A DNA stretch of 64,000 nt from the IMG/VR virus record IMGVR_UViG_3300032307_000797; one strand, 5' to 3'. The notes beneath the pieces are model-generated. The model was not told the origin of the DNA, did no database searches, and saw only the letters and a program-made list of their open reading frames with translations. The translations under genes were made by a program, and so were the position numbers. Source of the stretch: a virus. Shown one piece after another: positions 17,507 to 57,447 of the stretch (its first letter is position 1; the number at the start of each line of letters is the position of its first letter).

Positions 17507-17704
17507 TTATAAATATCCAAGAAATGGTAAAATCCATGAAAAAACTACCGCTCTTATTAATAAATAACTAATACAGGAAATATTCAACTGCCACATAATC
17601 ATGGTGATTTCGTCAATAATACTTTCTATTGGGTGTTTCCTCACATAGAAGTATCTAAAAAGGACAACCCACATTAAAATGTTAAGAAATGCGGTTAATG
17701 TCAT
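17507..17704 (-). CDS. Small putative membrane protein with two hydrophobic segments
   Basis: ATGA overlap with the hub gene stop; hydrophobic stretches AFLNILMWVVLFRYF and ISCISYLLIRAVVFSWILPFLGYL. Confidence 0.45.
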   Translation of the reverse strand: MTLTAFLNILMWVVLFRYFYVRKHPIESIIDEITMIMWQLNISCISYLLIRAVVFSWILPFLGYL

Positions 17705-28624: not shown

Positions 28625-30466
28625 TTATGCGTAATTTCTTGGGTCTTGGTTTAAGAACCCATCTATTAAATCAGGACGTTGTTGTAGGTACCTCGCCATA
28701 TTGTCGGTTAACGGTTCTGATTTATATGTTAATTCTATTTGTTTTTTCTGTGGTTCGGAAGTTGTTGTGGTTGTGGTATTACCTTGTTTATCTTTTAATC
28801 CTGCCTTAACAGCTGCATCATCCATCATTCCTCTAATTGCTTCCCCTCCACCTTTTATTCCCGGTGCAGCCTCTTTTGATGCCTTTAATGTTTGTTCAGC
28901 AATTTTTGCCGGGTCAAAACCAATAGCATCAACAAGTTTTGCCCCTGTTTTACCAAATTCCATTCTTAGTAATGCGGCAACGAAATTCATATCTCTCGAT
29001 ATATTTTCAGTGTCTGTTGCTTGTTTTCTAACGATATCCTCTGTAGATAATTCTTTAAACTCATCTTGGAATTTCATTAATTGACTAACTTGAGCATCCG
29101 TTAATTCTTCAATCGCCACTTCATTTTTTCCAAAATACTCTCTCATTTTATCACTTTGAAGTTCAATGGTCATTCTACCACCTTTCATAGTTGAGATGTT
29201 AGTTAAAAATTCTTGTTGTTCGTCACTTAAACTCAGACCACTTGCCATTAATTCAGATGCGGCAGATGACCTTTCCGCCGCTGCAATTGCACCATTTGCC
29301 AACTCACTATAAGAAATACCGAGTTCAGCTGCCATTGCCTTTGCTTTTCTAAGATTCACACCTGTAATTTCAAATCTACCTTGTTCTTCATTGTATGTTG
29401 CTAATGAACCTGCAACACCGATTAATGCATCTTGTAAACCTTCAACATTGTTAGTTGCCATATACATTAATTTCAATGGGTCGTTGAAATCACCAATAGC
29501 ACCACCAATCGCTTGTAGATTAGCGGCCATATCAATTGCTTTATCAGGGTCCATTACATCATCCGCAACCTTAAATGCGGTTTCCATGCTCATTCTGAAT
29601 TCAATTGATTTTTGAACCATTTTTGTAAGTCCTTGAATACCATTTTGAAAACCGTATTCATTTATCTTACCAATATTAGTACCCAATTCTTTTGTTACTT
29701 TTTGTGCCTGTAACCCAAGAGCAATTGAACCTTTACCCGCCTTTTCAATTTGTTTTGATGCATCCGACGCACCAACACCAATTTTTTCAAATGCTGGATA
29801 CATTCTTACCAAATCACTTAATGTCCCAACATATGCAGATGCCGCGTATCCCGCATCTTTCCATGTTTCTCTATTTAAAGATAAAAATCTACCCGTTTCT
29901 TGCACCAAACCCGTCGCAGCATTTGATAATTCTTGAAAACCGATTCCAATTCTTAATAATTCGGGATTCGCTTGTGTTAATTCATCTCTAAATGCTTCAG
30001 AAAATTTACCCGTTAAACCAAGTTCTTTATTGACTTGTCCGAGTAATTCAGTTTGTTGTTTGTAGTATAATAAACCTTGGTCACCAATTGAACCCAATAC
30101 TGTTTTAAACATCTCAGTTGCACCTTTAAGGTTCCCCTGACCATCTATCATTCCCTTAATAACACCGGACATTTTAATATATTCCTCTGTCATTTGTGGA
30201 AGATAACCCGTTTGTTCTTGTGCACCGATAATTTCGGCACCAGCATTTAAAACACCTCCAGTTATTTTTTGAAATGTGTTGGCGGTTCCACCACCAGTTG
30301 TGTTTTTTCCCGCACTGGTATCATATGTTTTAAGTCGGTCGAATTCGGCCTTTGCTTGTAACCCATCAGAAGGATTTAAAGGATATGGTCTGTTGTTAGC
30401 TTTCGCCCACTCCTTTTCAAACTCGGTAACTCTTCCTTTCTTTGCTAAATCTAATAAATCCGCCAT
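28625..30466 (-). CDS. Tape measure protein (613 aa)
   Basis: Helical, Ala/Gly/Gln-rich; sits after tube and chaperone genes and before the tube initiator. Confidence 0.7.
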   Translation of the reverse strand: MADLLDLAKKGRVTEFEKEWAKANNRPYPLNPSDGLQAKAEFDRLKTYDTSAGKNTTGGGTANTFQKITGGVLNAGAEIIGAQEQTGYLPQMTEEYIKMSGVIKGMIDGQGNLKGATEMFKTVLGSIGDQGLLYYKQQTELLGQVNKELGLTGKFSEAFRDELTQANPELLRIGIGFQELSNAATGLVQETGRFLSLNRETWKDAGYAASAYVGTLSDLVRMYPAFEKIGVGASDASKQIEKAGKGSIALGLQAQKVTKELGTNIGKINEYGFQNGIQGLTKMVQKSIEFRMSMETAFKVADDVMDPDKAIDMAANLQAIGGAIGDFNDPLKLMYMATNNVEGLQDALIGVAGSLATYNEEQGRFEITGVNLRKAKAMAAELGISYSELANGAIAAAERSSAASELMASGLSLSDEQQEFLTNISTMKGGRMTIELQSDKMREYFGKNEVAIEELTDAQVSQLMKFQDEFKELSTEDIVRKQATDTENISRDMNFVAALLRMEFGKTGAKLVDAIGFDPAKIAEQTLKASKEAAPGIKGGGEAIRGMMDDAAVKAGLKDKQGNTTTTTTSEPQKKQIELTYKSEPLTDNMARYLQQRPDLIDGFLNQDPRNYA

Positions 30467-30477
30467 ACCTATAAATA

Positions 30478-31458: not shown

Positions 31459-31947
31459 TTAGTATACTTGAATACATCTATCCATTCTCAATGAACAAGT
31501 GATAGTTGCGATATCATCTCTTGAATAATCAAGTTCATTGAAGTTTAAGTCGGTGATGAAAGTACCTTGAAGAATCCATTTTTCAACCACAACACCTGTT
31601 GGGTCTAACATTTCTAATTCAATGTCTTTCTTATAACCTGCAGCATAACCCATACGACCTGTTACCGATTCAGCGTGTAAACGGAACCACTCCATCAATG
31701 CTTGTGATGCCGAAGGACCAATTGGGTCTTTAAAGGTTACTCTTAATTCATTCCATTCAAATCTACCAGCAACGTAAGTTGAAGTATTGATAAATGGAAT
31801 CGCTACTGAGTTGATTTTAGCACTCGGTCTAGCCGCTGACGAAACGTACCATTCGTTGATTCCCAATGAAGAAGGGAAACGAAGGATAAATCTGTTTACT
31901 CTTTTCGGTTCGTAAGGAACCGGCATTTTCATTAATAAATCTGCCAT
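31459..31947 (-). CDS. Tail tube protein (T4 gp19-like)
   Basis: EPKRVNRF, YVAGRFEWNELRVTFKD, LEMLDPTGVVVEKWILQGTF...LDYS; immediately downstream of the sheath. Confidence 0.92.
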   Translation of the reverse strand: MADLLMKMPVPYEPKRVNRFILRFPSSLGINEWYVSSAARPSAKINSVAIPFINTSTYVAGRFEWNELRVTFKDPIGPSASQALMEWFRLHAESVTGRMGYAAGYKKDIELEMLDPTGVVVEKWILQGTFITDLNFNELDYSRDDIATITCSLRMDRCIQVY

Positions 31948-31987
31948 GTCTATGTTTTTTTAATTTTTTAAGTTTATCTTACTTTCT

Positions 31988-31995
31988 TATAAATA
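31988..31995 (-). promoter_or_regulatory. Putative late promoter motif TATTTATA for tail tube
   Basis: 40 nt upstream of ATG 31947. Confidence 0.6.
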
Positions 31996-32070
31996 TGTTA
32001 TTATCTAAAAAATATAATTTGTTTATCTGCACCTCTTGTTAATGTCATTTTTTTTTCGTATTTTTTCCAT

Positions 32071-32155
32071 ACTAGTATAATACTAGAACTAGAAATAAAA
32101 CTAGAAAATAATAATACTAGAACTAGATACTAGAATATTCTGGTATAATACTGGG
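32071..32155. repeat. Cluster of short direct ACTAG(A) repeats, origin-like / iteron-like
   Basis: ACTAG at about 32071, 32082, 32088, 32100, 32116, 32122, 32129, then degenerate CTGG copies; ATAATACTAGAACTAGA occurs twice; ORF-free. Confidence 0.7.
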
Positions 32156-32187
32156 TGGTTTATCAAAGTATATTTTTTATAAATTTT

Positions 32188-32203
32188 GGTTCCATGTGAA
32201 ACA
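32188..32203. promoter_or_regulatory. parS-like palindrome GGTTCCATGTGAAACA
   Basis: 14/16 match to the bacterial parS consensus TGTTNCACGTGAAACA. Confidence 0.5.
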
Positions 32204-32206
32204 TAT

Positions 32207-32238
32207 AAAAGGGGAAGCGGTTAAACTTCCCCTTTTTT
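32207..32238. terminator. Bidirectional rho-independent terminator after the sheath gene
   Basis: AAAAGGGGAAG-N8-CTTCCCCTTTTTT. Confidence 0.85.
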
Positions 32239-32241
32239 CAT

Positions 32242-35088
32242 TTAGATATTATCAAATGATGCTCCTGTTGGTGTGATTATGAACTCAACATCAATGAATT
32301 CAAGTGAACGAGTTGGTTTGATATAAATCTTACCTCTAAGAGTGTTTGCATCAATGTCCTCTGGGTCATTTGATACAGTTACACGGAATTCGTATAAACC
32401 TCTTTCTCTCTTAATTGCTTCAAGAATTGGGTTAACCAATCTCAAGAACTCATTTCTTACTTGCTCATCGTTTTGTTCAAATAGTAATCTAATCGCAACT
32501 GCCGAAATTAACTTTCTTGCTCTTAACAATAATCTTCTTACGTTAATTCTATCCAACGCAGATTCTCTAACTTGAAGGGTTTTGTTACCCCAAATGATAG
32601 TACCAGTATCTGAGAAGGTTGCGATTGGGTTAATTCTATTTTTGTATAACTCATCTCTTTCGTCAAGTGTCAATTTCTTAGTTGCTTTGATAGCTTTTAC
32701 TAAACCTCTTGAGTAACCTGCTACCGCGAACCATGGGAATGATACGTTGTCGGTAAGAGCGATGTTTCTAACAACCTCACCTGTTGGTGGGATGTATAGT
32801 TGTGTTGCATTATCTTGGTCTCTAACCTGAATCCAAGGCCAGTAGGTTGCTGAATAGTTAGTATCAAGTGCAACTCCATCTAATGCATCTACTACTTCCT
32901 CAACTGTTGAGAAATTAGGTGGTGCGATGATGTAAAGTGAATCCGCTCTATCATTTTCCATAATGTCAATTGCTTGTGAAGTCAATGAACTATGGTCGTA
33001 GAAGTTAATACCCGGAGTTGCGAAGATGTTAATGTCAACTGCTTCAGGGTTTGCGAATGTATTGATACCTTGTAGGTAAGCGTAGTAGTCAGAGTTTCCG
33101 ACAGTTGTACTGAAAACACCACCATTTGAAGTGTTACCACTTACATAAGTTGGTTTTCCAAAGATGTACGGGTCTCCGAATGTTTTAACTTCTCTGTAGA
33201 TATCCCAACCGTCAAAACCACCACATACTGCGAATGTGAATTTACGGTAGTTAATACTTGTCATTACGTTATCAACACCCGTTTGACCTTCTAAGTCATA
33301 AGGAGTGGTTGTAAACGTTGTACCTGTGATTGTAGATGCATTAGTTGATAAGTGGAAACCGCTAGTTGAACCCGCTGCCGCCGAACCTTTGTATTTGAAA
33401 AGGTCCTTATCATAACCAACTTGTGAAGAAAGACCAAAACTGATTTTTCTTACTTTATCACCTGATGATAATTTTTGAGTACCATCACTTTCATATCCAA
33501 TTACATCACCAGCTTCGAAGAATTGAGTTTTGTACATAACAGAACCCAAAGTTGTACCTGAGAATGATGTGTTAGCCGTGAATCCTTTGAAACCCGCAGG
33601 GAACGCATCCACCGGATGGTTACTTGCCATATTCAACATGATGTATTTTGAACGTAATTCATATTCACCGTCAGATGTACCAACTTTTCTTGCCACATAA
33701 CCCGGTAGGTCAGGGTTCATAGAACATCTTGTGAATTTTTCAAGAACCACCATATTATCGTCAGAATCGTTAAAGTCACGAACAATCATATCAAATTCAC
33801 CTGTTTCCAAGTTGATGTTGATGATTGAAACTTTAACTTGTTCGTTTGCTGCGTTACCATCAGAGATGGTGATAACATCAAACAAGTCAGATACTTCACC
33901 ACCACGAACTTCAGAAACAACTGTTGGTGACATTGGGGTATCCCATTGTCCTACGAAATTATTTCCTTCTGATACGAATACCTCTGTTAAACTCAAACCT
34001 CTTACGAAACCTTGTTCGAAAGCTGATTTTAAATAGTTAGGGTATGATTCGTAAACATAAACCGGAACTTCTGATTTTGGTTTATCAAATACATCCGTAC
34101 CTAAAACTTTAGTTACATATTTTGATGAAGTTGTGTCCATTGAACAAGTGAAAGTTTTTACTCCACTTGTTGCCCCTGTTACTGTGATAGTAAATTCAGA
34201 GAATGGATTAAACGGTAAATCGTCACCTGTAACATTGAAATGGTTGTTTGTTGTAACTTCTAAATTCAATGTTTGACCTGAGTAAGAACCTCTCGGACGG
34301 AAAGCGACTACTACTTGTTCGTCATAATCACTCATTAATGTTGAATCATAAACGAACTGTGTAACGTTGAATGTACCTGTACTTCCTGATGTGTATTCAA
34401 ATAGGTATGAGTAAACTTCAGTACCTGCCGCGTTACAGAATTGGTTGTACCATTCCTTACCATTTGGGTTATCTGCGTCATTTAAACCGGTCAAAGGAGA
34501 AATTTCCTCCAAACTTGAGTTTAAACCTGAAGTTGCCGATGATGGTACCTCACCAATAACGAACCATTGTCCGTCATTAGATGCGGTGTTACCACTAAAT
34601 GTTGAGAATAAGTAATCTGCCATTGATTGACCATCGTATGCGGTTACTCCTGACATGTTTGAGTAGAACGTACTACCCGTAATACCGTTAAATGTTGATG
34701 GGTCACAAGTTCCTGAAGTGTCTCCACTCAATGAACCCAAAGTAACTCCACCAAGGGTTTTTATTGCGAATGTTCTCACGGGTTTGTAACCTGTAAGACC
34801 AAGGATTCTTGTTACGAAAAGTTGATTTGATTCCTCAAGGTATGCTTTAGCAACATAAGGTAACTCGAATTTTGGGTTACCGTTTCCATCTTTTACTGGT
34901 GATGAACCTCCGAAGTAAAGTTTGAATTCATCGTAATCGGTTACAAGGATGGGTTCGAATGCCGGACCTTTAAGGGTCTCTCCAACCAATCCAAGAGTTG
35001 TAACACCAACACTCTGTGCTACGAATGTTAAATCTTTTTCTGACGTGTAAACACCCGGAGATACAAATACTCTATTTGAATTTGCCAT
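32242..35088 (-). CDS. Contractile tail sheath protein (T4 gp18-like)
   Basis: N-terminal FVSPGVYTSEKD; C-terminal YWPW, PWFAVAGYSRG, RINPI, WGNKTL, DRINVRRL, FEQND, PTRSLEFI. Confidence 0.96.
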   Translation of the reverse strand: MANSNRVFVSPGVYTSEKDLTFVAQSVGVTTLGLVGETLKGPAFEPILVTDYDEFKLYFGGSSPVKDGNGNPKFELPYVAKAYLEESNQLFVTRILGLTGYKPVRTFAIKTLGGVTLGSLSGDTSGTCDPSTFNGITGSTFYSNMSGVTAYDGQSMADYLFSTFSGNTASNDGQWFVIGEVPSSATSGLNSSLEEISPLTGLNDADNPNGKEWYNQFCNAAGTEVYSYLFEYTSGSTGTFNVTQFVYDSTLMSDYDEQVVVAFRPRGSYSGQTLNLEVTTNNHFNVTGDDLPFNPFSEFTITVTGATSGVKTFTCSMDTTSSKYVTKVLGTDVFDKPKSEVPVYVYESYPNYLKSAFEQGFVRGLSLTEVFVSEGNNFVGQWDTPMSPTVVSEVRGGEVSDLFDVITISDGNAANEQVKVSIININLETGEFDMIVRDFNDSDDNMVVLEKFTRCSMNPDLPGYVARKVGTSDGEYELRSKYIMLNMASNHPVDAFPAGFKGFTANTSFSGTTLGSVMYKTQFFEAGDVIGYESDGTQKLSSGDKVRKISFGLSSQVGYDKDLFKYKGSAAAGSTSGFHLSTNASTITGTTFTTTPYDLEGQTGVDNVMTSINYRKFTFAVCGGFDGWDIYREVKTFGDPYIFGKPTYVSGNTSNGGVFSTTVGNSDYYAYLQGINTFANPEAVDINIFATPGINFYDHSSLTSQAIDIMENDRADSLYIIAPPNFSTVEEVVDALDGVALDTNYSATYWPWIQVRDQDNATQLYIPPTGEVVRNIALTDNVSFPWFAVAGYSRGLVKAIKATKKLTLDERDELYKNRINPIATFSDTGTIIWGNKTLQVRESALDRINVRRLLLRARKLISAVAIRLLFEQNDEQVRNEFLRLVNPILEAIKRERGLYEFRVTVSNDPEDIDANTLRGKIYIKPTRSLEFIDVEFIITPTGASFDNI

Positions 35089-35124: not shown

Positions 35125-35132
35125 TATAAATA
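35125..35132 (-). promoter_or_regulatory. Putative late promoter motif (GA)TATTTATA for sheath
   Basis: 36 nt upstream of ATG 35088. Confidence 0.6.
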
Positions 35133-35166
35133 TCTTTGTTTTTAGCAAAGATTTCGTGACTTTTTT

Positions 35167-35210: not shown

Positions 35211-35372
35211 ATGGAAAAAGAGAACTCAAAAAACATCAAAGTCAGTGAAAAACATCATCAGATGTTGAAAGAATATTGCGATAAAAATGGCATGAAAATT
35301 TACAAGGTTGTTCAGAAGTGGATTGAGGAGACCTGTAAACCTAAAAAAAAGGATATATATGGTGAGAATTAA
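35211..35372 (+). CDS. Small ribbon-helix-helix DNA-binding protein (53 aa); below ORF-track cutoff
   Basis: MEKENSKNIKVSEKHHQMLKEYCDKNGMKIYKVVQKWIEETCKPKKKDIYGEN*: strand-helix-G-helix RHH pattern. Confidence 0.7.
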   Translation: MEKENSKNIKVSEKHHQMLKEYCDKNGMKIYKVVQKWIEETCKPKKKDIYGEN

Positions 35373-40118: not shown

Positions 40119-40149
40119 AAAATATTTCTATGATATGCTAATATACGAA

Positions 40150-40157
40150 TATTTATA
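40150..40157 (+). promoter_or_regulatory. Late motif TATTTATA nested in a divergent host-type promoter (40138-40168, minus)
   Basis: 12 nt upstream of ATG 40170; the minus strand reads TTGTTT-N17-TATATTAG. Confidence 0.55.
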
Positions 40158-40169
40158 GATAAAAACAAT

Positions 40170-41288
40170 ATGGCATCCACAATAATTACGCAACCGGACA
40201 GAGAGAAGTTATATACACAGGTATTCCACCTATTGGGAATGCCCGTTAGAGGTATTGAATTAACAGAAGAACAAATGGATACATTTCTAGAATTATCCCT
40301 CTCTGAGTATGAACAATATGTAAGTGATTGGTTGATTGAATCTCAATGGTCTGCATTGGCGGGATTGGATGTTGATACACAATCATTAACGAGAGCTTTT
40401 ACCACAAGAAGTTTAGATTATGAAACTCAATATACTCACTCATATTCTAAGATAGTAGGTCTTCAGACAGGTGGTAATGCCGAGTTAAAAAAGGATTACA
40501 TATCACTTAGTGCAAATACCCAAACATATGTAATTCCTGCGGGAAGAGAAATAAATGAACTTTTATGGTTTACAAGGGCGGAGTTAACCGATTCGATTGT
40601 TGACCCATTTTTAGGTGGTTTTGGTGGTCTTGGTGGTGTTGCGTTTGGTGGTGTTGGTGGATTTGCACAAGTTGGTTCATCAGGTTCTTATTTTATGTTA
40701 CCTGCTTATGACTTATTGTTAAGAATGGGAGATAGAAATATTAAAAACCGACTTATTGGTGGTGAATTAACTTATCGAGTTACTGCGGGTCCAAATGGAA
40801 CTAAAATTGTTCATTTACACAATGTACCGGGTGGTAGATTTGATTTTGGTTCCTTACAAAACAATAGACATAAAGTTTGGTATTGGTATTACGACACTTT
40901 GGCTTTAGATACTTGTTTAGATAAAAATAGTGGCATTATTAAATTACCATCAGACGTAGATACCGAAGAATTGACTTGGGATATGTTAAACAAACCCGCA
41001 CAGAATTGGGTTAGAAAATATCTAATTGCGTATGCTAAAGAAGGATTAGCAAGAATTTGGGGTAAATTCTCAGGTGACCTACAAGTTCCTGATAGTTCAG
41101 TAAAACTCGATTACTCCTCACTTCTAACAGAAGCAAAAGATGAGAAATTAAAATTGGCGGAAGAATTGATGCAAAGATTAGAAAGACTTCGTCCCGAAAA
41201 AGTTCTTGAAAGAAAAGGAAACGAAGCTGAGAATCTTAACAAGTCACTAAAATACCGACCAATGCAATCTCCATTCAATGTAATTTAA
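40170..41288 (+). CDS. Neck / head-tail adaptor protein (T4 gp13-like)
   Basis: LLGMPVRGIELTEEQM N-terminus and WVRKYLIAYAKEGLARIWGKFS...LLTEAKDE C-terminus. Confidence 0.8.
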   Translation: MASTIITQPDREKLYTQVFHLLGMPVRGIELTEEQMDTFLELSLSEYEQYVSDWLIESQWSALAGLDVDTQSLTRAFTTRSLDYETQYTHSYSKIVGLQTGGNAELKKDYISLSANTQTYVIPAGREINELLWFTRAELTDSIVDPFLGGFGGLGGVAFGGVGGFAQVGSSGSYFMLPAYDLLLRMGDRNIKNRLIGGELTYRVTAGPNGTKIVHLHNVPGGRFDFGSLQNNRHKVWYWYYDTLALDTCLDKNSGIIKLPSDVDTEELTWDMLNKPAQNWVRKYLIAYAKEGLARIWGKFSGDLQVPDSSVKLDYSSLLTEAKDEKLKLAEELMQRLERLRPEKVLERKGNEAENLNKSLKYRPMQSPFNVI

Positions 41289-44182
41289 CTCTCAACAGCA
41301 TGAAATGCAAAATCGTTACCGTTGGTTTCGATTATTTCATCTTCATTACTTTTTGTGCTGGCAACTTGTAGATTTACAACTTTTCTATTGTGGTCAACCC
41401 AATATTGGTCAACCAATTCAATACTATTCTCCACATACATAAAGAATGGGTCACGTTGTACTCGGTTCCAAAATAACACCTCACTATCTGAAAGTGTCAT
41501 AACTTCATCGAACTTATCTTGACCATCACTCTTTAATGGTTGTCCACTTATAAGTTCACATTGAGACTTGGTAAAGTATTGTCTGTCTTTCGGGTCTTCA
41601 ACAAGAATATCTTCTCGAATTTCAGGTTTAAACGCACATAATAAAGGTTCGATGCGTTTATTAAAGTTTGTTAGGTATCGTGCAACATTATAATCACCTG
41701 TTAAGTCAGGATTGTTTACAATATCCTTTTCGGGAATCATATAACAATTGATTAATAAGTAATCATTTGGTATCGGAGTACCATGTTCTTTCATGTACTC
41801 CTCTTGCATTTTCTTTGTTGGTTTAGAAATCTTCTGAACATCACCGTCGGATTTCTTTATGCCGTTATTAACATAGTAAATCGTTTCACCAAGTCCCGCA
41901 GGATAGTTATTTTGTAATACTAATTCCATGTGTGCTTGACGAGACATTAACGAACCCGATTTAGTGGTTTTCTTAATGTGTTTTTTATAATCATCTACTG
42001 ATTGTTTAACACGTGCTTTGTTGGCGATTTTGGAAAGAGGAATTTCTTTATTATAAATCTTCTCAACGTATTGATAGTACAACTCAACAAAAGAAAGTCC
42101 ATCACCATTAAGTAAATGTTTCAATCCCTCATCCAAAAATTCTACAATGTATTGTTGTAGTTTTTTAGATTTAATTGTGTTACCGGTTAACTTAATAACC
42201 TCTTTACCTTTCTTATTTAATTTGATGATGTAGTTCTTACGAGAAACATTAATACAAGATGGTGCGGTATAATCAATGTCTAATCCCATCTCATTTCTCA
42301 TAAAGATGTCGTTAAACTCCGCGGTGTCCGCTTCGATACCTTTATATTCTTTACCCTCATCAACCAATTCATTTAATCCCTTACCGATGTAAGTGTGTTC
42401 ATTAATAGTGTCGGGAGTTTCAAAGTTCACACCGTCCGTATCCATTACGAGAGGTTTATAACCTTTCTTCATGAAGAACATAATCATCATACGAAGACAT
42501 TGACGCCCGGTACATGTAATGGTTTCACCCATATTCATATCTCCCCATGGAAACACTTGCGGTGCGGATAATGAACCAAAATATGCGTTGATGAAAATCT
42601 TGATTGGTAATTGTTTGCGGTCATACATCTCCGCTTGAACGGGGTCAGACGATTTCAATTCACCGGCAAGACGTTTGTACTTAATACGAATGTTACGGAA
42701 ATACTTTAACATCGATTTCTGTACGTGCATTACATCACAATCAGGAAATACATCATACACTAACTGAATTGATGGGTAAAGAGATGCGTAGTCAAACTTA
42801 ACGATGTTCTTTGCGTAACCAACGTTTAACAAACGTGATAATCCACCTGTGATTGCTCGTTTTTCGTCTTTTGCCGGAATGGCAAGATTGTTCTCATATG
42901 ACCACGCCAACATGATAATCTTCCACAGTGTTGCGGTACCCATCGTTGCGATTCTCTCATATGTCGTAGGTACCAACTTCGATAGTAAGAAAGTAGATTG
43001 TGAGAATGAATCGTCCACAATCATGGTTTCATACAAGTCATCATCAAGATACTGTTCCACAATCTTTCTACCTGGCCACACCTCAAATTTATTCGGATAT
43101 TTTTCAAGTAAACCATCTGTACCGGGTTCACCAATCTTTTTATAGTTACCTGTTTTTGGATTAACATAGTAGCTATCGTTTTCTAAATAAATCTTTGAAA
43201 TGTATGCACCATCAACGTAAACACGATTAGGTTTTTCTTTTTCCAAATACTTGGTGATGTACTTCAATCCCCAAGATTTGATTTCAGAGTTGATTGCTTG
43301 TGCTCTTCTAACGGAGTGAGCAATATCGATGATATTAAACCCCCATATAACGTGTTGAGTATATGGTTCAATTTCGTTTGCTAATTTTAATACCCCTTCT
43401 TTTTCCTTCATTCCTTGTGTTGTGAATATTTGTGTTAATCCACTAACATCCACATCCAATATTTTCGCTCGTTTAAGAATAAACGGCCAGTCAAAGAATG
43501 CTGAGTTGTACCCACCAATAATTGTTGGTTTTACTTCTCGTATTAATTCAAAGAATCTCTCAATACATCTTTTTTCACCGTCCTCACCAAATGCGGGAAT
43601 TGTTTCTTGTAAACCACGGTTATCTTTAACCCCAATCAAGATAATTTCACTTGATTCTGCCTCCAAACCCGTGGTCTCAATATCGAATACAAATCGATGA
43701 ACTCCCGAATAATCATCAATACCTTTAAAAAGACGTTTCTTTTTCTGTATCAAATATTGTTCAACAGGAGATAGTATAGTAAAAAGAGATTTTGTTTTTT
43801 CACCCCATGGGTCGACACCACCCTGTCTGAAGAAGTTTACCAATTCAGTATAACCTTTCATACACTTAACTAAGTGTGTCATACCATTCTGTAAACGTTC
43901 ATTACCATGGGTTTCCAATTTCTCAATTAGAATACCATACTCACCCATCTTTTTCTTTTGGAGGGCTTTGTTGTTTTGGTAAAAGTTCAAACCACTTAGG
44001 TCACCAACCCAAAGGAATGGTACCAAGGTATCTTGTTTTATAATTTTACCTTTTTCAGGGTCCTGAATTACTTTGAAAATTTTGTTGGTTCTGTAATCGT
44101 ACTCAACCCCCACTATGTATTGTTCGGGGTCCCAACCATTTAAGAAGTTCTCGATAACTTCTTGAGAAATTACTTCTGACAT
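41285..44182 (-). CDS. Family B DNA polymerase with 3'-5' exonuclease
   Basis: FDIETTG (ExoI), GYNSAFFDW (ExoII), DYASLYPS (motif A), KIFINAYFG (B), MDTDG (C), RKNY. Confidence 0.95.
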   Translation of the reverse strand: MSEVISQEVIENFLNGWDPEQYIVGVEYDYRTNKIFKVIQDPEKGKIIKQDTLVPFLWVGDLSGLNFYQNNKALQKKKMGEYGILIEKLETHGNERLQNGMTHLVKCMKGYTELVNFFRQGGVDPWGEKTKSLFTILSPVEQYLIQKKKRLFKGIDDYSGVHRFVFDIETTGLEAESSEIILIGVKDNRGLQETIPAFGEDGEKRCIERFFELIREVKPTIIGGYNSAFFDWPFILKRAKILDVDVSGLTQIFTTQGMKEKEGVLKLANEIEPYTQHVIWGFNIIDIAHSVRRAQAINSEIKSWGLKYITKYLEKEKPNRVYVDGAYISKIYLENDSYYVNPKTGNYKKIGEPGTDGLLEKYPNKFEVWPGRKIVEQYLDDDLYETMIVDDSFSQSTFLLSKLVPTTYERIATMGTATLWKIIMLAWSYENNLAIPAKDEKRAITGGLSRLLNVGYAKNIVKFDYASLYPSIQLVYDVFPDCDVMHVQKSMLKYFRNIRIKYKRLAGELKSSDPVQAEMYDRKQLPIKIFINAYFGSLSAPQVFPWGDMNMGETITCTGRQCLRMMIMFFMKKGYKPLVMDTDGVNFETPDTINEHTYIGKGLNELVDEGKEYKGIEADTAEFNDIFMRNEMGLDIDYTAPSCINVSRKNYIIKLNKKGKEVIKLTGNTIKSKKLQQYIVEFLDEGLKHLLNGDGLSFVELYYQYVEKIYNKEIPLSKIANKARVKQSVDDYKKHIKKTTKSGSLMSRQAHMELVLQNNYPAGLGETIYYVNNGIKKSDGDVQKISKPTKKMQEEYMKEHGTPIPNDYLLINCYMIPEKDIVNNPDLTGDYNVARYLTNFNKRIEPLLCAFKPEIREDILVEDPKDRQYFTKSQCELISGQPLKSDGQDKFDEVMTLSDSEVLFWNRVQRDPFFMYVENSIELVDQYWVDHNRKVVNLQVASTKSNEDEIIETNGNDFAFHAVES

Positions 44183-44237: not shown

Positions 44238-44269
44238 CAAATATAAGTAAAAAAAATTGAATTTACAAA
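44238..44269 (-). promoter_or_regulatory. Bacteroidota-type promoter TTTG-N20-TATATTTG for polB
   Basis: Exact fit to the Bacteroides/Flavobacterium -33 TTTG / -7 TAnnTTTG consensus. Confidence 0.7.
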
Positions 44270-45285: not shown

Positions 45286-45297
45286 ATTTTATAAATA

Positions 45298-47349
45298 TTA
45301 GTAACAGATATATTGAATTCCCGATGAATTATAGAAGTTGATGGTACGTCCTCCCGTTGACGAATCATATGTGGTTCCATTATCCCATCCATCCTCAGTT
45401 GCATATGTCACATCAAATGTATAGCTATCCACTCCGCCACCTAAGTTCGCGGTTTTACCTGTTATTGTATATGCGACCCAACCACTATTCATGTCCGGTT
45501 CATTATGAATTCTTATGATATCACCGGATGATAATGAACTAAAAAACGTACCCATATTTTGTAATGTAAAAGAAGTAACCGTCAAAGAAACTTTAGTAAC
45601 ATTTGCTGCCGTTGAATTATTACGTGACCATCCATAACCACCCATACTTGGTTGAGATAATGATATTGGATTTGTTAACCAAGTTTGATTTTGAGTGTTT
45701 ACTCCAAAACAACCACTTAAAGTAGGTGTACTTGTTAAAGTTGGTGTCGTCGTTAATGTTGGTGTAATAGTAGGTGTACTTGTTAATGTTGATGTACTCG
45801 TTAATGTTGGTGTATTTGTTGCCGTTAACGTTGGTGTTGGCGTTGGGGTATTACAATTTATTGTAACAGATTTTGCTAATATAGTTGAAGGGTTATTTGT
45901 ATCCCTTATTACCATCCAATATGTTCCTGTATTGGAACCAATCGCAACACTTAATCCACCCGAAGGCATTTCGGTCCAGTTTGTGTTGTTAAGTGCGTCG
46001 TTTTCAGACGCATAATTACCTAACCCAATTTCATATTGTCCTGAGCCACCCGTGGCACCACTTGCTATGGTATAATTGGGTGATACACAATTATATGTTA
46101 TACTAAAATCAAGTGGTGATAGTGTAGTTGTTAGTGTTGGGGTAACTTCCGGTGTTCCTGTTGGTGTTGGGGTCGATGTTGGTGTTCTTGTTAATGTGGG
46201 TGTGGGTGTTGGTGTTTGTGTAGGTACATTATCCAAAGTTACTCTTAATATATCCGACGTGGTAAATCCTGTTGTAAAATCATATGATATATTTGTCGGT
46301 ACAGATGCTGTCGGAGATGTATATAAAAGAACATCATTTCTATATATGTTAATACTATAAGAACCACTACCCCCAACAATAACTGCAATAGACTGACCGC
46401 TCACAATACCTGAGTGATTAGCATATCCTGTTTGACCTTGAGTTAATGGAAAACTAAAATTCCAACTACTACTAAAACTACTTGTATATAATTGCCAAGA
46501 AACTCCAACAGTATTATTATTTTCTAAAACGATATTATATGTTTGAGAAGTTGTTAATGTTGGTGTGGCAACAGGTTCAGATGTACTCGTAGGGGTACTT
46601 GTTAATGTTGGTGTCGGAGTTGGTGTTGGACAATCATCGACAGAAGCAATAATACCATTAACAACATATAATAAATTAAATGTATCTAATTTTATATAAT
46701 AACCGTTTGTTCCCGCATAATATGTGGTTAAGGTATCATCATTATATAGTTTATCACCAACCTCAGGTATATAATTTGAAAAATATGCACTGGTACCTGC
46801 CGTAGAATAACATGTTGCCAATTGTAAACATGACAACGAGTTACATGCTAAAGTTTGGTTATTTACAAAGCTACCTTGTGTGTTTGTTGAAAAACTTAAA
46901 TTGGCAAAATAAGCTTGCTCCCCTGAAGAACTAGTAGTATTTGTCAACGTAGGTGTTGGTGTACTCGTTAAAGTTGGTGTTTCGGTTAACGTAGGTGTAC
47001 TAGTTGAAGTTACTGTCGGTGTTGGTGTCGGAGTTTCTTCCGATGTTGTGGTTAATGTTGGAGTACTTGTTAATGTTGGTGTCGGAGTTGGGGTAATCAC
47101 ATAATGAGTGATGTAAACCTCACACTCTGAAAATGAATTGTATACAATAATTCTATCGGTGTCATTTGGCACTGTAACGGCGATACCTGTTCCAGTGGTT
47201 ATACTACTAAGAGCAATCAATGTTGCATCATCAGTGGTGCCATATAATTTGGCAAATTGATATTCTGAGGACCCCGTCGTTGTATAAAATATATCGTATG
47301 GTCCTACCGAATCCCCCTGAGTGATTTTAACATTGAAAAATTTTGACAC
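45298..47349 (-). CDS. Modular Pro/Thr-rich virion fibre/adhesin-like protein (683 aa)
   Basis: Four TPTPTPTLT linkers separating Cys-bracketed beta modules; GTG start. Confidence 0.7.
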   Translation of the reverse strand: MSKFFNVKITQGDSVGPYDIFYTTTGSSEYQFAKLYGTTDDATLIALSSITTGTGIAVTVPNDTDRIIVYNSFSECEVYITHYVITPTPTPTLTSTPTLTTTSEETPTPTPTVTSTSTPTLTETPTLTSTPTPTLTNTTSSSGEQAYFANLSFSTNTQGSFVNNQTLACNSLSCLQLATCYSTAGTSAYFSNYIPEVGDKLYNDDTLTTYYAGTNGYYIKLDTFNLLYVVNGIIASVDDCPTPTPTPTLTSTPTSTSEPVATPTLTTSQTYNIVLENNNTVGVSWQLYTSSFSSSWNFSFPLTQGQTGYANHSGIVSGQSIAVIVGGSGSYSINIYRNDVLLYTSPTASVPTNISYDFTTGFTTSDILRVTLDNVPTQTPTPTPTLTRTPTSTPTPTGTPEVTPTLTTTLSPLDFSITYNCVSPNYTIASGATGGSGQYEIGLGNYASENDALNNTNWTEMPSGGLSVAIGSNTGTYWMVIRDTNNPSTILAKSVTINCNTPTPTPTLTATNTPTLTSTSTLTSTPTITPTLTTTPTLTSTPTLSGCFGVNTQNQTWLTNPISLSQPSMGGYGWSRNNSTAANVTKVSLTVTSFTLQNMGTFFSSLSSGDIIRIHNEPDMNSGWVAYTITGKTANLGGGVDSYTFDVTYATEDGWDNGTTYDSSTGGRTINFYNSSGIQYICY

Positions 47350-57418: not shown

Positions 57419-57447
57419 AAATATTTATATTTTAAAAAACTATTAAA

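Follow-up and report, generated by a model that had tools for sequence, protein, structure and literature searches.

The window analysed here is a 64-kb stretch of AT-rich phage DNA (35% G+C) in which the tail genes lie on the minus strand. The sheath gene and the tube gene are separated by a spacer of 294 bp, and no ORF of at least 40 aa overlaps positions 31948-32241. The initial annotation described this spacer as an ORF-free element and placed in it a host-type promoter on the plus strand, approximately seven ACTAG repeats over 85 bp, an AT-rich stretch and a strong terminator with a plus-strand T tract. All of these elements are present (Table 1), although the class of the promoter must be revised. 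The seven ACTAG copies are followed by two CTGG variants, which stretch the array to position 32154 and give it a total length of approximately 85 bp. A 15-bp palindrome, CTAGTATAATACTAG (32072-32086), bounds this array on one side and a variant of it, CTGGTATAATACTGG (32140-32154), on the other; the array is made of 34-bp duplicated units. The hairpin at the sheath side is predicted to end both the sheath mRNA on the minus strand and the putative antisense unit on the plus strand.

Table 1. Coordinates of the sheath-tube module, its neighbouring genes and related sites (positions refer to the window unless a locus is named).
Feature	Position	Strand	Description
Tube gene	31459-31947	-	162 aa, phrog_4542
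Late-type promoter of the tube gene	31988..31996	-	ATATTTATA; borders the module, outside the antisense unit
Predicted antisense promoter, Bacteroidota type	32036..32066	+	TTG (32036-32038), 20-nt spacer, TATTTTTT (32059-32066)
Box array	32069..32154	.	Seven CTAG boxes and CTGG variants
ACTAG starts	32071, 32082, 32088, 32100, 32116, 32122, 32129		Seven copies
AT-rich tract	32155-32206		Part 32155..32187 is the spacer between the array and parS
parS-like palindrome	32188..32203	.	GGTTCCATGTGAAACA, 14/16 positions of TGTTNCACGTGNAACA
Bidirectional intrinsic terminator	32207..32236	.	Hairpin with T tracts on both sides; called on both strands
Module order		+	TTGTTA-N17-TATTTT (32036-32064), ACTAG array, AT tract, palindrome (32188-32203), hairpin (32207-32236)
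Sheath gene	32242-35088	-	948 aa, phrog_23
Arc/RHH-like gene	35211-35372	+	53 aa; weak scores: Pfam RepB-RCR_reg E = 0.005, PHROG repressor families E = 2e-4 to 4e-3
ATATTTATA sites	17508-17516, 30466-30477, 31988-31996, 35125-35133, 40149-40157, 45290-45298, 49766-49774, 54351-54359, 54375-54383, 57421-57429		TATTTATAGG at 30477
Spacer insertions in relatives	L013:7257-8870(-), L049:3614-5275(-), L111:1054-2577(+), L128:1040-1738(-), L129:2337-3712(-)		

CTAG is avoided in the window, where 29 copies are observed and 205 are expected from the base composition, a depletion of approximately sevenfold. Seven of these 29 copies lie inside 63 bp (32071-32133). Because the Poisson probability of finding at least seven CTAG in 63 bp at the background rate of the window is P = 4e-16, chance clustering is excluded, and the claim that the density of CTAG is far higher here than in the rest of the window is confirmed. 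Avoidance of palindromic tetranucleotides was also observed in the complete 310-kb genome of a relative, G003, in which GCGC (0.12 of expectation), CTAG (0.21), AGCT (0.25), CGCG (0.35) and GGCC (0.39) are rare and GATC occurs at a normal frequency (0.87). A link to the recoding of TAG through a suppressor tRNA was considered and rejected, as G003 encodes 32 tRNAs and a tmRNA and no suppressor.

In IMG/VR, the sheath and tube proteins have more than 600 relatives, on contigs of up to 334 kb, and the carriers of the module are a large family of uncultured giant lake phages. The sheath-tube spacer could be delimited in 136 related IMG/VR loci, and its usual length is 250-380 bp. At least two CTAG copies lie inside the spacer in 129 of the 136 loci, so the conservation of the array between the two tail genes, which the initial annotation had proposed as a check, was found. 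In 118 related loci, CTAG density shows a 27-fold enrichment in the spacer relative to its flanks. The module keeps one syntenic place down to 73% sheath identity, within a spacer that has otherwise diverged, and it occurs once, rarely twice, per genome of approximately 300 kb. Clusters of three CTAG copies (20-nt gaps) are confined to the module in three genomes of 233-311 kb, and a fourth genome, G001, has one additional cluster. Each genome has 2-4 occurrences of the boundary word CCCAGTAT, one or two of them at each module. G001 carries a second, compact copy of the module (L176:2762-2834; G001 32261-32332), which consists of TACCCAGTAT, six CTAG and ATACTGGGTA and occupies the intergenic region between divergent genes, where an 89-aa ORF begins 9 nt away and the late promoter of a 439-aa gene is approximately 57 bp distant; no family match was found for either of these two proteins. 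At the nucleotide level, no match was detected in 50,697 genomes of isolated phages. Judged by the sheath protein, the nearest isolates are Microcystis phage Mel-JY01 and Flavobacterium phage immuto, whose sheath-tube spacers (94 bp and 45 bp, respectively) contain the late promoter and neither boxes nor parS. Moreover, we found no published description of this module in the literature on phage parS hijacking and CTAG repeat arrays.

The architecture of the array is more constant at its edges than in its interior. In the relatives, the array is bounded by TACCCAGTAT and ATACTGGGTA, which form 10-bp inverted ends, and by inverted CCAGTAT heptamers; read in the sense of the tail genes, it nearly always opens with (T/C)ACCCAGTAT and often closes with ATACTGGGTA. 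The interior is AT-rich and holds a hypervariable number of CTAG boxes (0-33), 73% of which read CTAGT. The boxes are both direct and inverted and are separated by variable AT-rich spacers. Their spacings are non-random, with peaks at 6-7, 9 and 14-16 bp, many of these counts being non-independent owing to recent duplications. Tandem duplication enlarges the arrays, the duplicated unit being 14-16, 20, 30-31 or, in the window, 34 bp long, and the gain and loss of boxes can be seen between phages with sheath proteins that are 93% identical. Furthermore, CTAG boxes are exchanged for CCAG, CTGG or CCGG among the relatives, and the module persists even in lineages that have no CTAG at all in 6-8 kb, where its boxes are CCGG or CCAG and its centre is AT-rich. 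Therefore, boxes of the form C-pyrimidine-purine-G between inverted ends are under selection, and not CTAG itself. As a separate observation, a 16-bp unit, CTAGtatCTAGgatct, has been amplified up to approximately 13 times in the clade of L012, L013, L019, L021 and L071, which yields 16-33 CTAG and one GATC per unit.

Inverted ends of this type could be the mark of a selfish or structural leftover, such as a MITE-like element, an invertible segment or a gene-less moron shell, that has no function for the phage. The second copy elsewhere in G001, the polarity of the interior, which varies by clade, and the use of the spacer as a hot spot by mobile genes agree with such a remnant. However, a remnant would not be expected to stay syntenic down to 73% sheath identity while the spacer around it diverges, to be limited to one or two copies per genome and to keep a fixed orientation within clades, and no serine invertase was found, while a tyrosine recombinase is present in one of four genomes only. 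We consider this explanation highly improbable. In particular, no support was obtained for an inverton beyond the inverted ends: no mixed orientations were seen within clades, and the recombinases looked for were not found or were confined to that single genome.

The promoter on the plus strand was annotated as a host-type TTGTTA-N17-TATTTT element. Its place is confirmed and its motif is conserved, but the Bacteroidota class suits it better than the sigma-70 class. The sigma-70 reading (TTGTTA at 32036-32041, a 17-nt spacer and TATTTT at 32059-32064) has a strict score of 8/12, which is below the threshold and was not called, whereas the same site matches the Bacteroidota pattern TTG-N20-TAnnTTTG with 7/8 positions in the -7 box. 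Of 77 non-redundant relatives, 73 have a motif of the form TTG-N19-21-TAnnTTT[GT] directly beside the array and none has it on the opposite strand; in one clade, the -7 box is a perfect match to the Bacteroidota box (TATTTTTG). The motif overlaps a conserved TACGAAA and the degenerate palindrome TTGAC-N4-GTCAA. In the sense of the tail genes, the conserved stretch past the array reads AAAAAATACGAAA-N7-TTGAC-N3/4-(G)TCAAG, and the opposite strand of this stretch is the antisense promoter motif. The palindrome TTGAC-N3/4-GTCAA, of which the copy in the window (32035-32048) is degenerate, overlaps the antisense -33 element and resembles an operator site to which a dimeric regulator could bind. 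A 965-aa gene (41285-44182, minus strand) is preceded, in a short spacer, by a near-consensus Bacteroidota promoter, TTG-N20-TATATTTG (44238-44268, minus strand), which has the same build as the antisense promoter motif of the module. This promoter and the absence of Shine-Dalgarno sequences before almost all genes of the window indicate a Bacteroidota host, and the hosts of the family are probably Bacteroidota, with freshwater Flavobacteriales or Chitinophagales as likely candidates. The lineage may be that of the 'moraphages', which are predicted to infect Bacteroidota (PMC12619734); such an element is not mentioned in that paper.

A second type of promoter lies on the tube side of the module. 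In the relatives, approximately 45 variable bases are followed, in the tail-gene sense, by ATATTTATA, and the start codon of the tube gene comes approximately 35 nt later. The window has nine copies of ATATTTATA, each in the right orientation just upstream of a gene start, and the sites listed in Table 1 are 11-50 nt from these starts. The same sequence is found upstream of the tube gene in all of the aligned relatives and also in Mel-JY01 and immuto, and it is probably the late promoter of the phage family.

Some relatives use the spacer as a hot spot for inserted genes, and the positions of these genes help to delimit the module. The insertions encode homing-endonuclease-like proteins (zinc ribbon, DUF723, REase_MTES_1575 and DUF7487) or, in antisense orientation, YkuD L,D-transpeptidases. 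They are found between the terminator and parS, between the sheath gene and the array, or in the interval that separates the antisense promoter from the tube promoter, and never within the segment from the antisense promoter through the array to parS. This integrity, together with the promoter motif in 73 of 77 relatives and a hairpin with an antisense T-rich tail in at least 58 of 77, supports the initial proposal that promoter, repeats and terminator form an autonomous non-coding unit. We also rejected the possibility that an antisense gene, now lost, once had the array as its 5′ leader, since the YkuD genes are located past parS and have a late promoter of their own.

The insertions also bear on the idea that the module is an operator or insulator that tunes the expression of the late tail genes, with a box-bound regulator that controls the tube promoter or blocks read-through from the sheath gene. 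The location between the sheath terminator and the tube promoter is suited to such a role, and both module copies of G001 are 55-130 bp upstream of a late-type promoter. However, because the insertions leave the segment from antisense promoter to parS intact, the view that the array merely regulates the tube promoter is weakened: where endonuclease genes have been inserted, the array is 1.6-1.7 kb from the tube promoter or is split from the sheath end, and it is still intact and joined to its antisense promoter. In addition, the late promoter is shared by the nearest isolated phages, which have no array. An operator of this kind is therefore very unlikely.

Whether the module acts as RNA or as DNA can be addressed through its terminator and its folding. 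Of 77 non-redundant spacers, 69 contain a G+C-rich hairpin; a T-rich tail follows it in the antisense direction in at least 58 and in the sense direction in at least 39, and one clade has the antisense tail only. In the window, the plus-strand RNA has a predicted folding energy of -44.5 kcal/mol (z = -5.0). These features could belong to the gene of a small non-coding RNA of approximately 165 nt, with its 5′ end near 32070 and its 3′ end at 32236, that would be transcribed early by the host RNA polymerase and act in trans, with repeated CUAG motifs or a long imperfect hairpin that might, for instance, titrate an RNA-binding protein or a nuclease as a sponge or decoy. The conserved and correctly oriented promoter and terminator, the clade with the antisense tail alone, the stable fold of the plus strand and the lack of ORFs all suit an RNA gene, and CUAG, being palindromic, would appear in the transcript whichever way the interior is oriented. 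However, no Rfam 15 family reached its gathering score (the best matches had 12-26 bits against thresholds of 35-115), and a G-U wobble test on the 77 relatives revealed no strand preference in folding, the sense strand being the stabler in 44 and the antisense strand in 32. Moreover, the body of such an RNA would be hypervariable in length and sequence, with box turnover already at 93% sheath identity; a DNA site, parS, lies inside the unit; and in the relatives with YkuD insertions the transcript would run into the inserted gene, so that its 3′ end is not conserved. We therefore regard a trans-acting RNA as rather unlikely, while still a serious candidate.

A known RNA locus that may be compared with the module is the type III antitoxin gene (ToxI), in which a promoter is followed by regular tandem repeats of 34-40 nt, a terminator and then the gene of an endoribonuclease toxin. 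The module likewise has a promoter, repeats, a terminator and no ORF. Its units are, however, irregular (6-34 nt), and the array is followed by the terminator and the sheath gene with no toxin gene. Every invariant motif of the module is dyad-symmetric, namely CTAG, the CCAGTAT/ATACTGG pair, parS and TTGAC-N4-GTCAA, and the array interior has opposite A/T polarity in different clades, whereas the flanks stay in the same orientation. Because of these symmetric motifs, the polarity flips and the lack of a preferred folding strand, a function at the DNA level is favoured.

One of the symmetric motifs is the parS-like palindrome between the AT-rich spacer and the terminator. The chromosomal parS of ParABS systems is the 16-bp palindrome TGTTNCACGTGAAACA (PMC7022226). 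The copy in the window is the sole site with no more than two mismatches in 64 kb, where 0.26 sites are expected. Across 87 non-redundant spacers, a parS with at most two mismatches is present in 49, six of which are exact, and the site is absent or badly degraded in 38. It is always positioned 33-84 nt past the sheath stop codon, and its left half, TGTTYCAC, is almost invariant, while its right half is looser. Exact TGTTCCACGTGGAACA occurs at this same place in relatives from several lineages, and in the complete genome G003 an exact parS is found solely at the module. Many bacterial chromosomes contain the exact 16-mer, frequently as a cluster of sites, and those of Flavobacterium, Chitinophaga, Algibacter and Bacteroidales are among them. 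Because exact words are also found on many unrelated IMG/VR contigs (among the matches listed, 2 of 120 belong to this phage family), a parS on viral DNA is not unique in itself. The phage site thus shares with chromosomal parS the 16-bp sequence, exact in several relatives, and a position beside an origin-like region as in bacteria. Unlike chromosomal parS, it is a single copy, often has one degraded half-site and has been lost in some clades, and the phages encode neither ParA nor a parS-binding ParB. In four near-complete relatives, we found no ParA and no HTH_ParB domain, only sub-threshold ParB_N matches, and a phage-encoded partition system was rejected on these grounds. Because the phages have no ParB of their own, the binder of parS, if the site is used, would be the host ParB.

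These observations raise the possibility that the module is a segregation or positioning site, at which the ParABS/SMC machinery of the host is borrowed through parS to place, compact or stably carry the genome, such as during a carrier or episomal state, and at which the box array would be an accessory centromere-like array for a small dimeric protein such as one of the RHH type. The tetramer boxes of TP228 parH are an array of this kind, bound by an RHH protein. Like the module, RHH arrays have very short boxes, direct and inverted and variable in number, and they are read by small dimeric proteins, and in this respect the boxes recall RHH centromeres (PMC9499535). However, the omega heptads of pSM19035 are contiguous, with at least four required without gaps (PMC9499535), and the boxes of the module are non-contiguous, being gapped by variable AT-rich spacers, and have no partner ATPase. 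A candidate binder is encoded 3 kb away by the 53-aa Arc/RHH-like gene. No other gene of the tail block lies on the opposite strand, and over 110 relatives retain this gene in divergent orientation to the sheath gene. This gene can nevertheless be lost, since in L021 it has been cleanly deleted, which leaves a spacer of 96 bp at that place, and the array is kept with 19 boxes. In addition, there are no boxes upstream of the gene itself, and we rejected the RHH-like neighbour as an obligatory binder of the boxes. The host-type parS at a fixed position in phages that lack ParA and a parS-binding ParB speaks for a segregation site. Against it, more than one third of the lineages that keep the array have no parS, the RHH gene is dispensable for retention of the array, and an integrase in one of four genomes and a partition ATPase in none give no sign of a plasmid-like lifestyle. 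On balance, a site devoted to segregation is quite unlikely.

The boxes may also be compared with clusters of a methylation site. GATC, a palindromic tetranucleotide that is a target of methylation, is clustered at E. coli oriC, P1 oriR and P1 pac, and in these sites, as in the module, one palindromic 4-mer is piled up in a unique cis-acting site. The likeness fails in the CTAG-free lineages, which keep the module with other boxes. The phages carry orphan methyltransferases of the D12 and N4/N6 classes; G003 also has an orphan C5 methyltransferase and one tyrosine recombinase.

The closest parallels to the layout as a whole are the replication origins of phage T4. T4 oriF and oriG are units of approximately 100 bp in which a promoter is followed by an A+T-rich unwinding element that has no sequence requirement, and replication is primed from an R-loop (PMC3016281). 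The module is likewise a non-coding unit of approximately 100-170 bp with a predicted pre-late promoter that faces an A+T-rich, easily melted stretch. Indeed, positions 31966-32115 are the least stable 150 bp of the 64-kb window, the instability of the array is above the 99.8th percentile of the window, and both the array and the AT-rich spacer at 32155..32187 are counted within its least stable stretch, so that an A+T-rich element of the unwinding type lies directly downstream of the predicted promoter. The freedom of sequence of the T4 unwinding element would fit the hypervariable interior of the module. Unlike oriF and oriG, the module has a promoter that is predicted to be of the host-type early class and not MotA-dependent, its melted stretch contains palindromic boxes and inverted ends, and parS and a terminator are included in the unit. 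T4 oriE consists of an early promoter and a cluster of 12-nt direct repeats that is syntenic in relatives, and the role of this cluster is unproven (PMC3016281). The module resembles oriE in having a putative early-mode promoter beside a cluster of short repeats that is positionally conserved in related phages, but the oriE repeats are 12 nt long and evenly spaced, whereas the boxes of the module have a palindromic core of 4-7 bp, vary from 0 to 33 copies and have the uneven spacings given above. Furthermore, no RepEB-like partner is known for the module.

The initial annotation inferred either a replication origin or a small RNA and named GC skew as a check of the former. This check turned out negative. 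In the complete genome G003, there is no skew inflection at the module, which is located at 59.2 kb; the turning points of the cumulative skew are at approximately 41 and 54 kb, that is, 18 and 5 kb away, and they coincide with sign changes of the skew (5-kb bins) that we take as switches in gene direction. In the window, the GC3 skew of the co-oriented tail genes does not shift across the module. T4 origins tend to lie near compositional shifts or switches in the direction of transcription, as a tendency and not a rule, and no such shift occurs at the module. An A-rich transcript is poorly suited to a stable R-loop, and the predicted transcript of the module would be A-rich, which also speaks against an origin. 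The proposed origin is supported by the promoter, the unstable stretch, the near-uniqueness and parS, and not by the skew; its RNA alternative is weakened by the Rfam result, the strand-neutral folding and the hypervariable body.

The sequence evidence shows a real, conserved and near-unique module, and the predicted promoter and terminator suggest that it is a transcribed unit. We tentatively interpret it as an autonomous, non-coding, cis-acting DNA locus that binds proteins and may have a role in replication initiation or genome organisation, following the combined logic of T4 oriF/oriG and oriE. An origin of the T4 kind would agree with a promoter that points into the least stable 150 bp, with the near-uniqueness of the module and with the adjoining parS. 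In this interpretation, the boxes and parS would be protein-binding sites on double-stranded DNA. Early transcription by the host RNA polymerase would open or activate the array, a dimeric protein would coat the boxes, and the host ParB would load at the phage parS, so that the adjacent site would recruit ParB, and perhaps SMC, to the phage DNA; the RNA would be a by-product or a primer and not a trans-acting product. Several observations temper this cis-acting interpretation: there is no skew inflection at the module, parS is absent or badly degraded in 38 of the 87 spacers and has two mismatches in the window, the RHH-like neighbour is gone in the relative with a 19-box array, and the conserved promoter and terminator would suit an RNA gene just as well. 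Neither an initiator nor a protein that binds the boxes was identified for the module. A more specific version, in which the locus is a combined origin and centromere where host transcription opens the array and hijacked ParB/SMC individualises, positions or stably carries the 300-kb genome, is unlikely as it stands.

To our knowledge, nothing is known about where replication starts in large uncultured Bacteroidota phages or how it is organised. A module that occurs once per genome and unites a host-type promoter, a cluster of an otherwise avoided tetranucleotide and a site for host chromosome partition provides a concrete place for testing this question, and it is a practical marker for recognising this phage family in metagenomes. 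If the locus is an origin, the T4 logic of a promoter plus an unwinding element would extend to a distant lineage, with an added layer of sequence-specific boxes. If the host ParB is recruited, a phage free of partition genes would be borrowing the bacterial machinery for segregation and condensin loading. Should the combined origin and centromere prove true, it would represent a hitch-hiking strategy that is undescribed for such phages.
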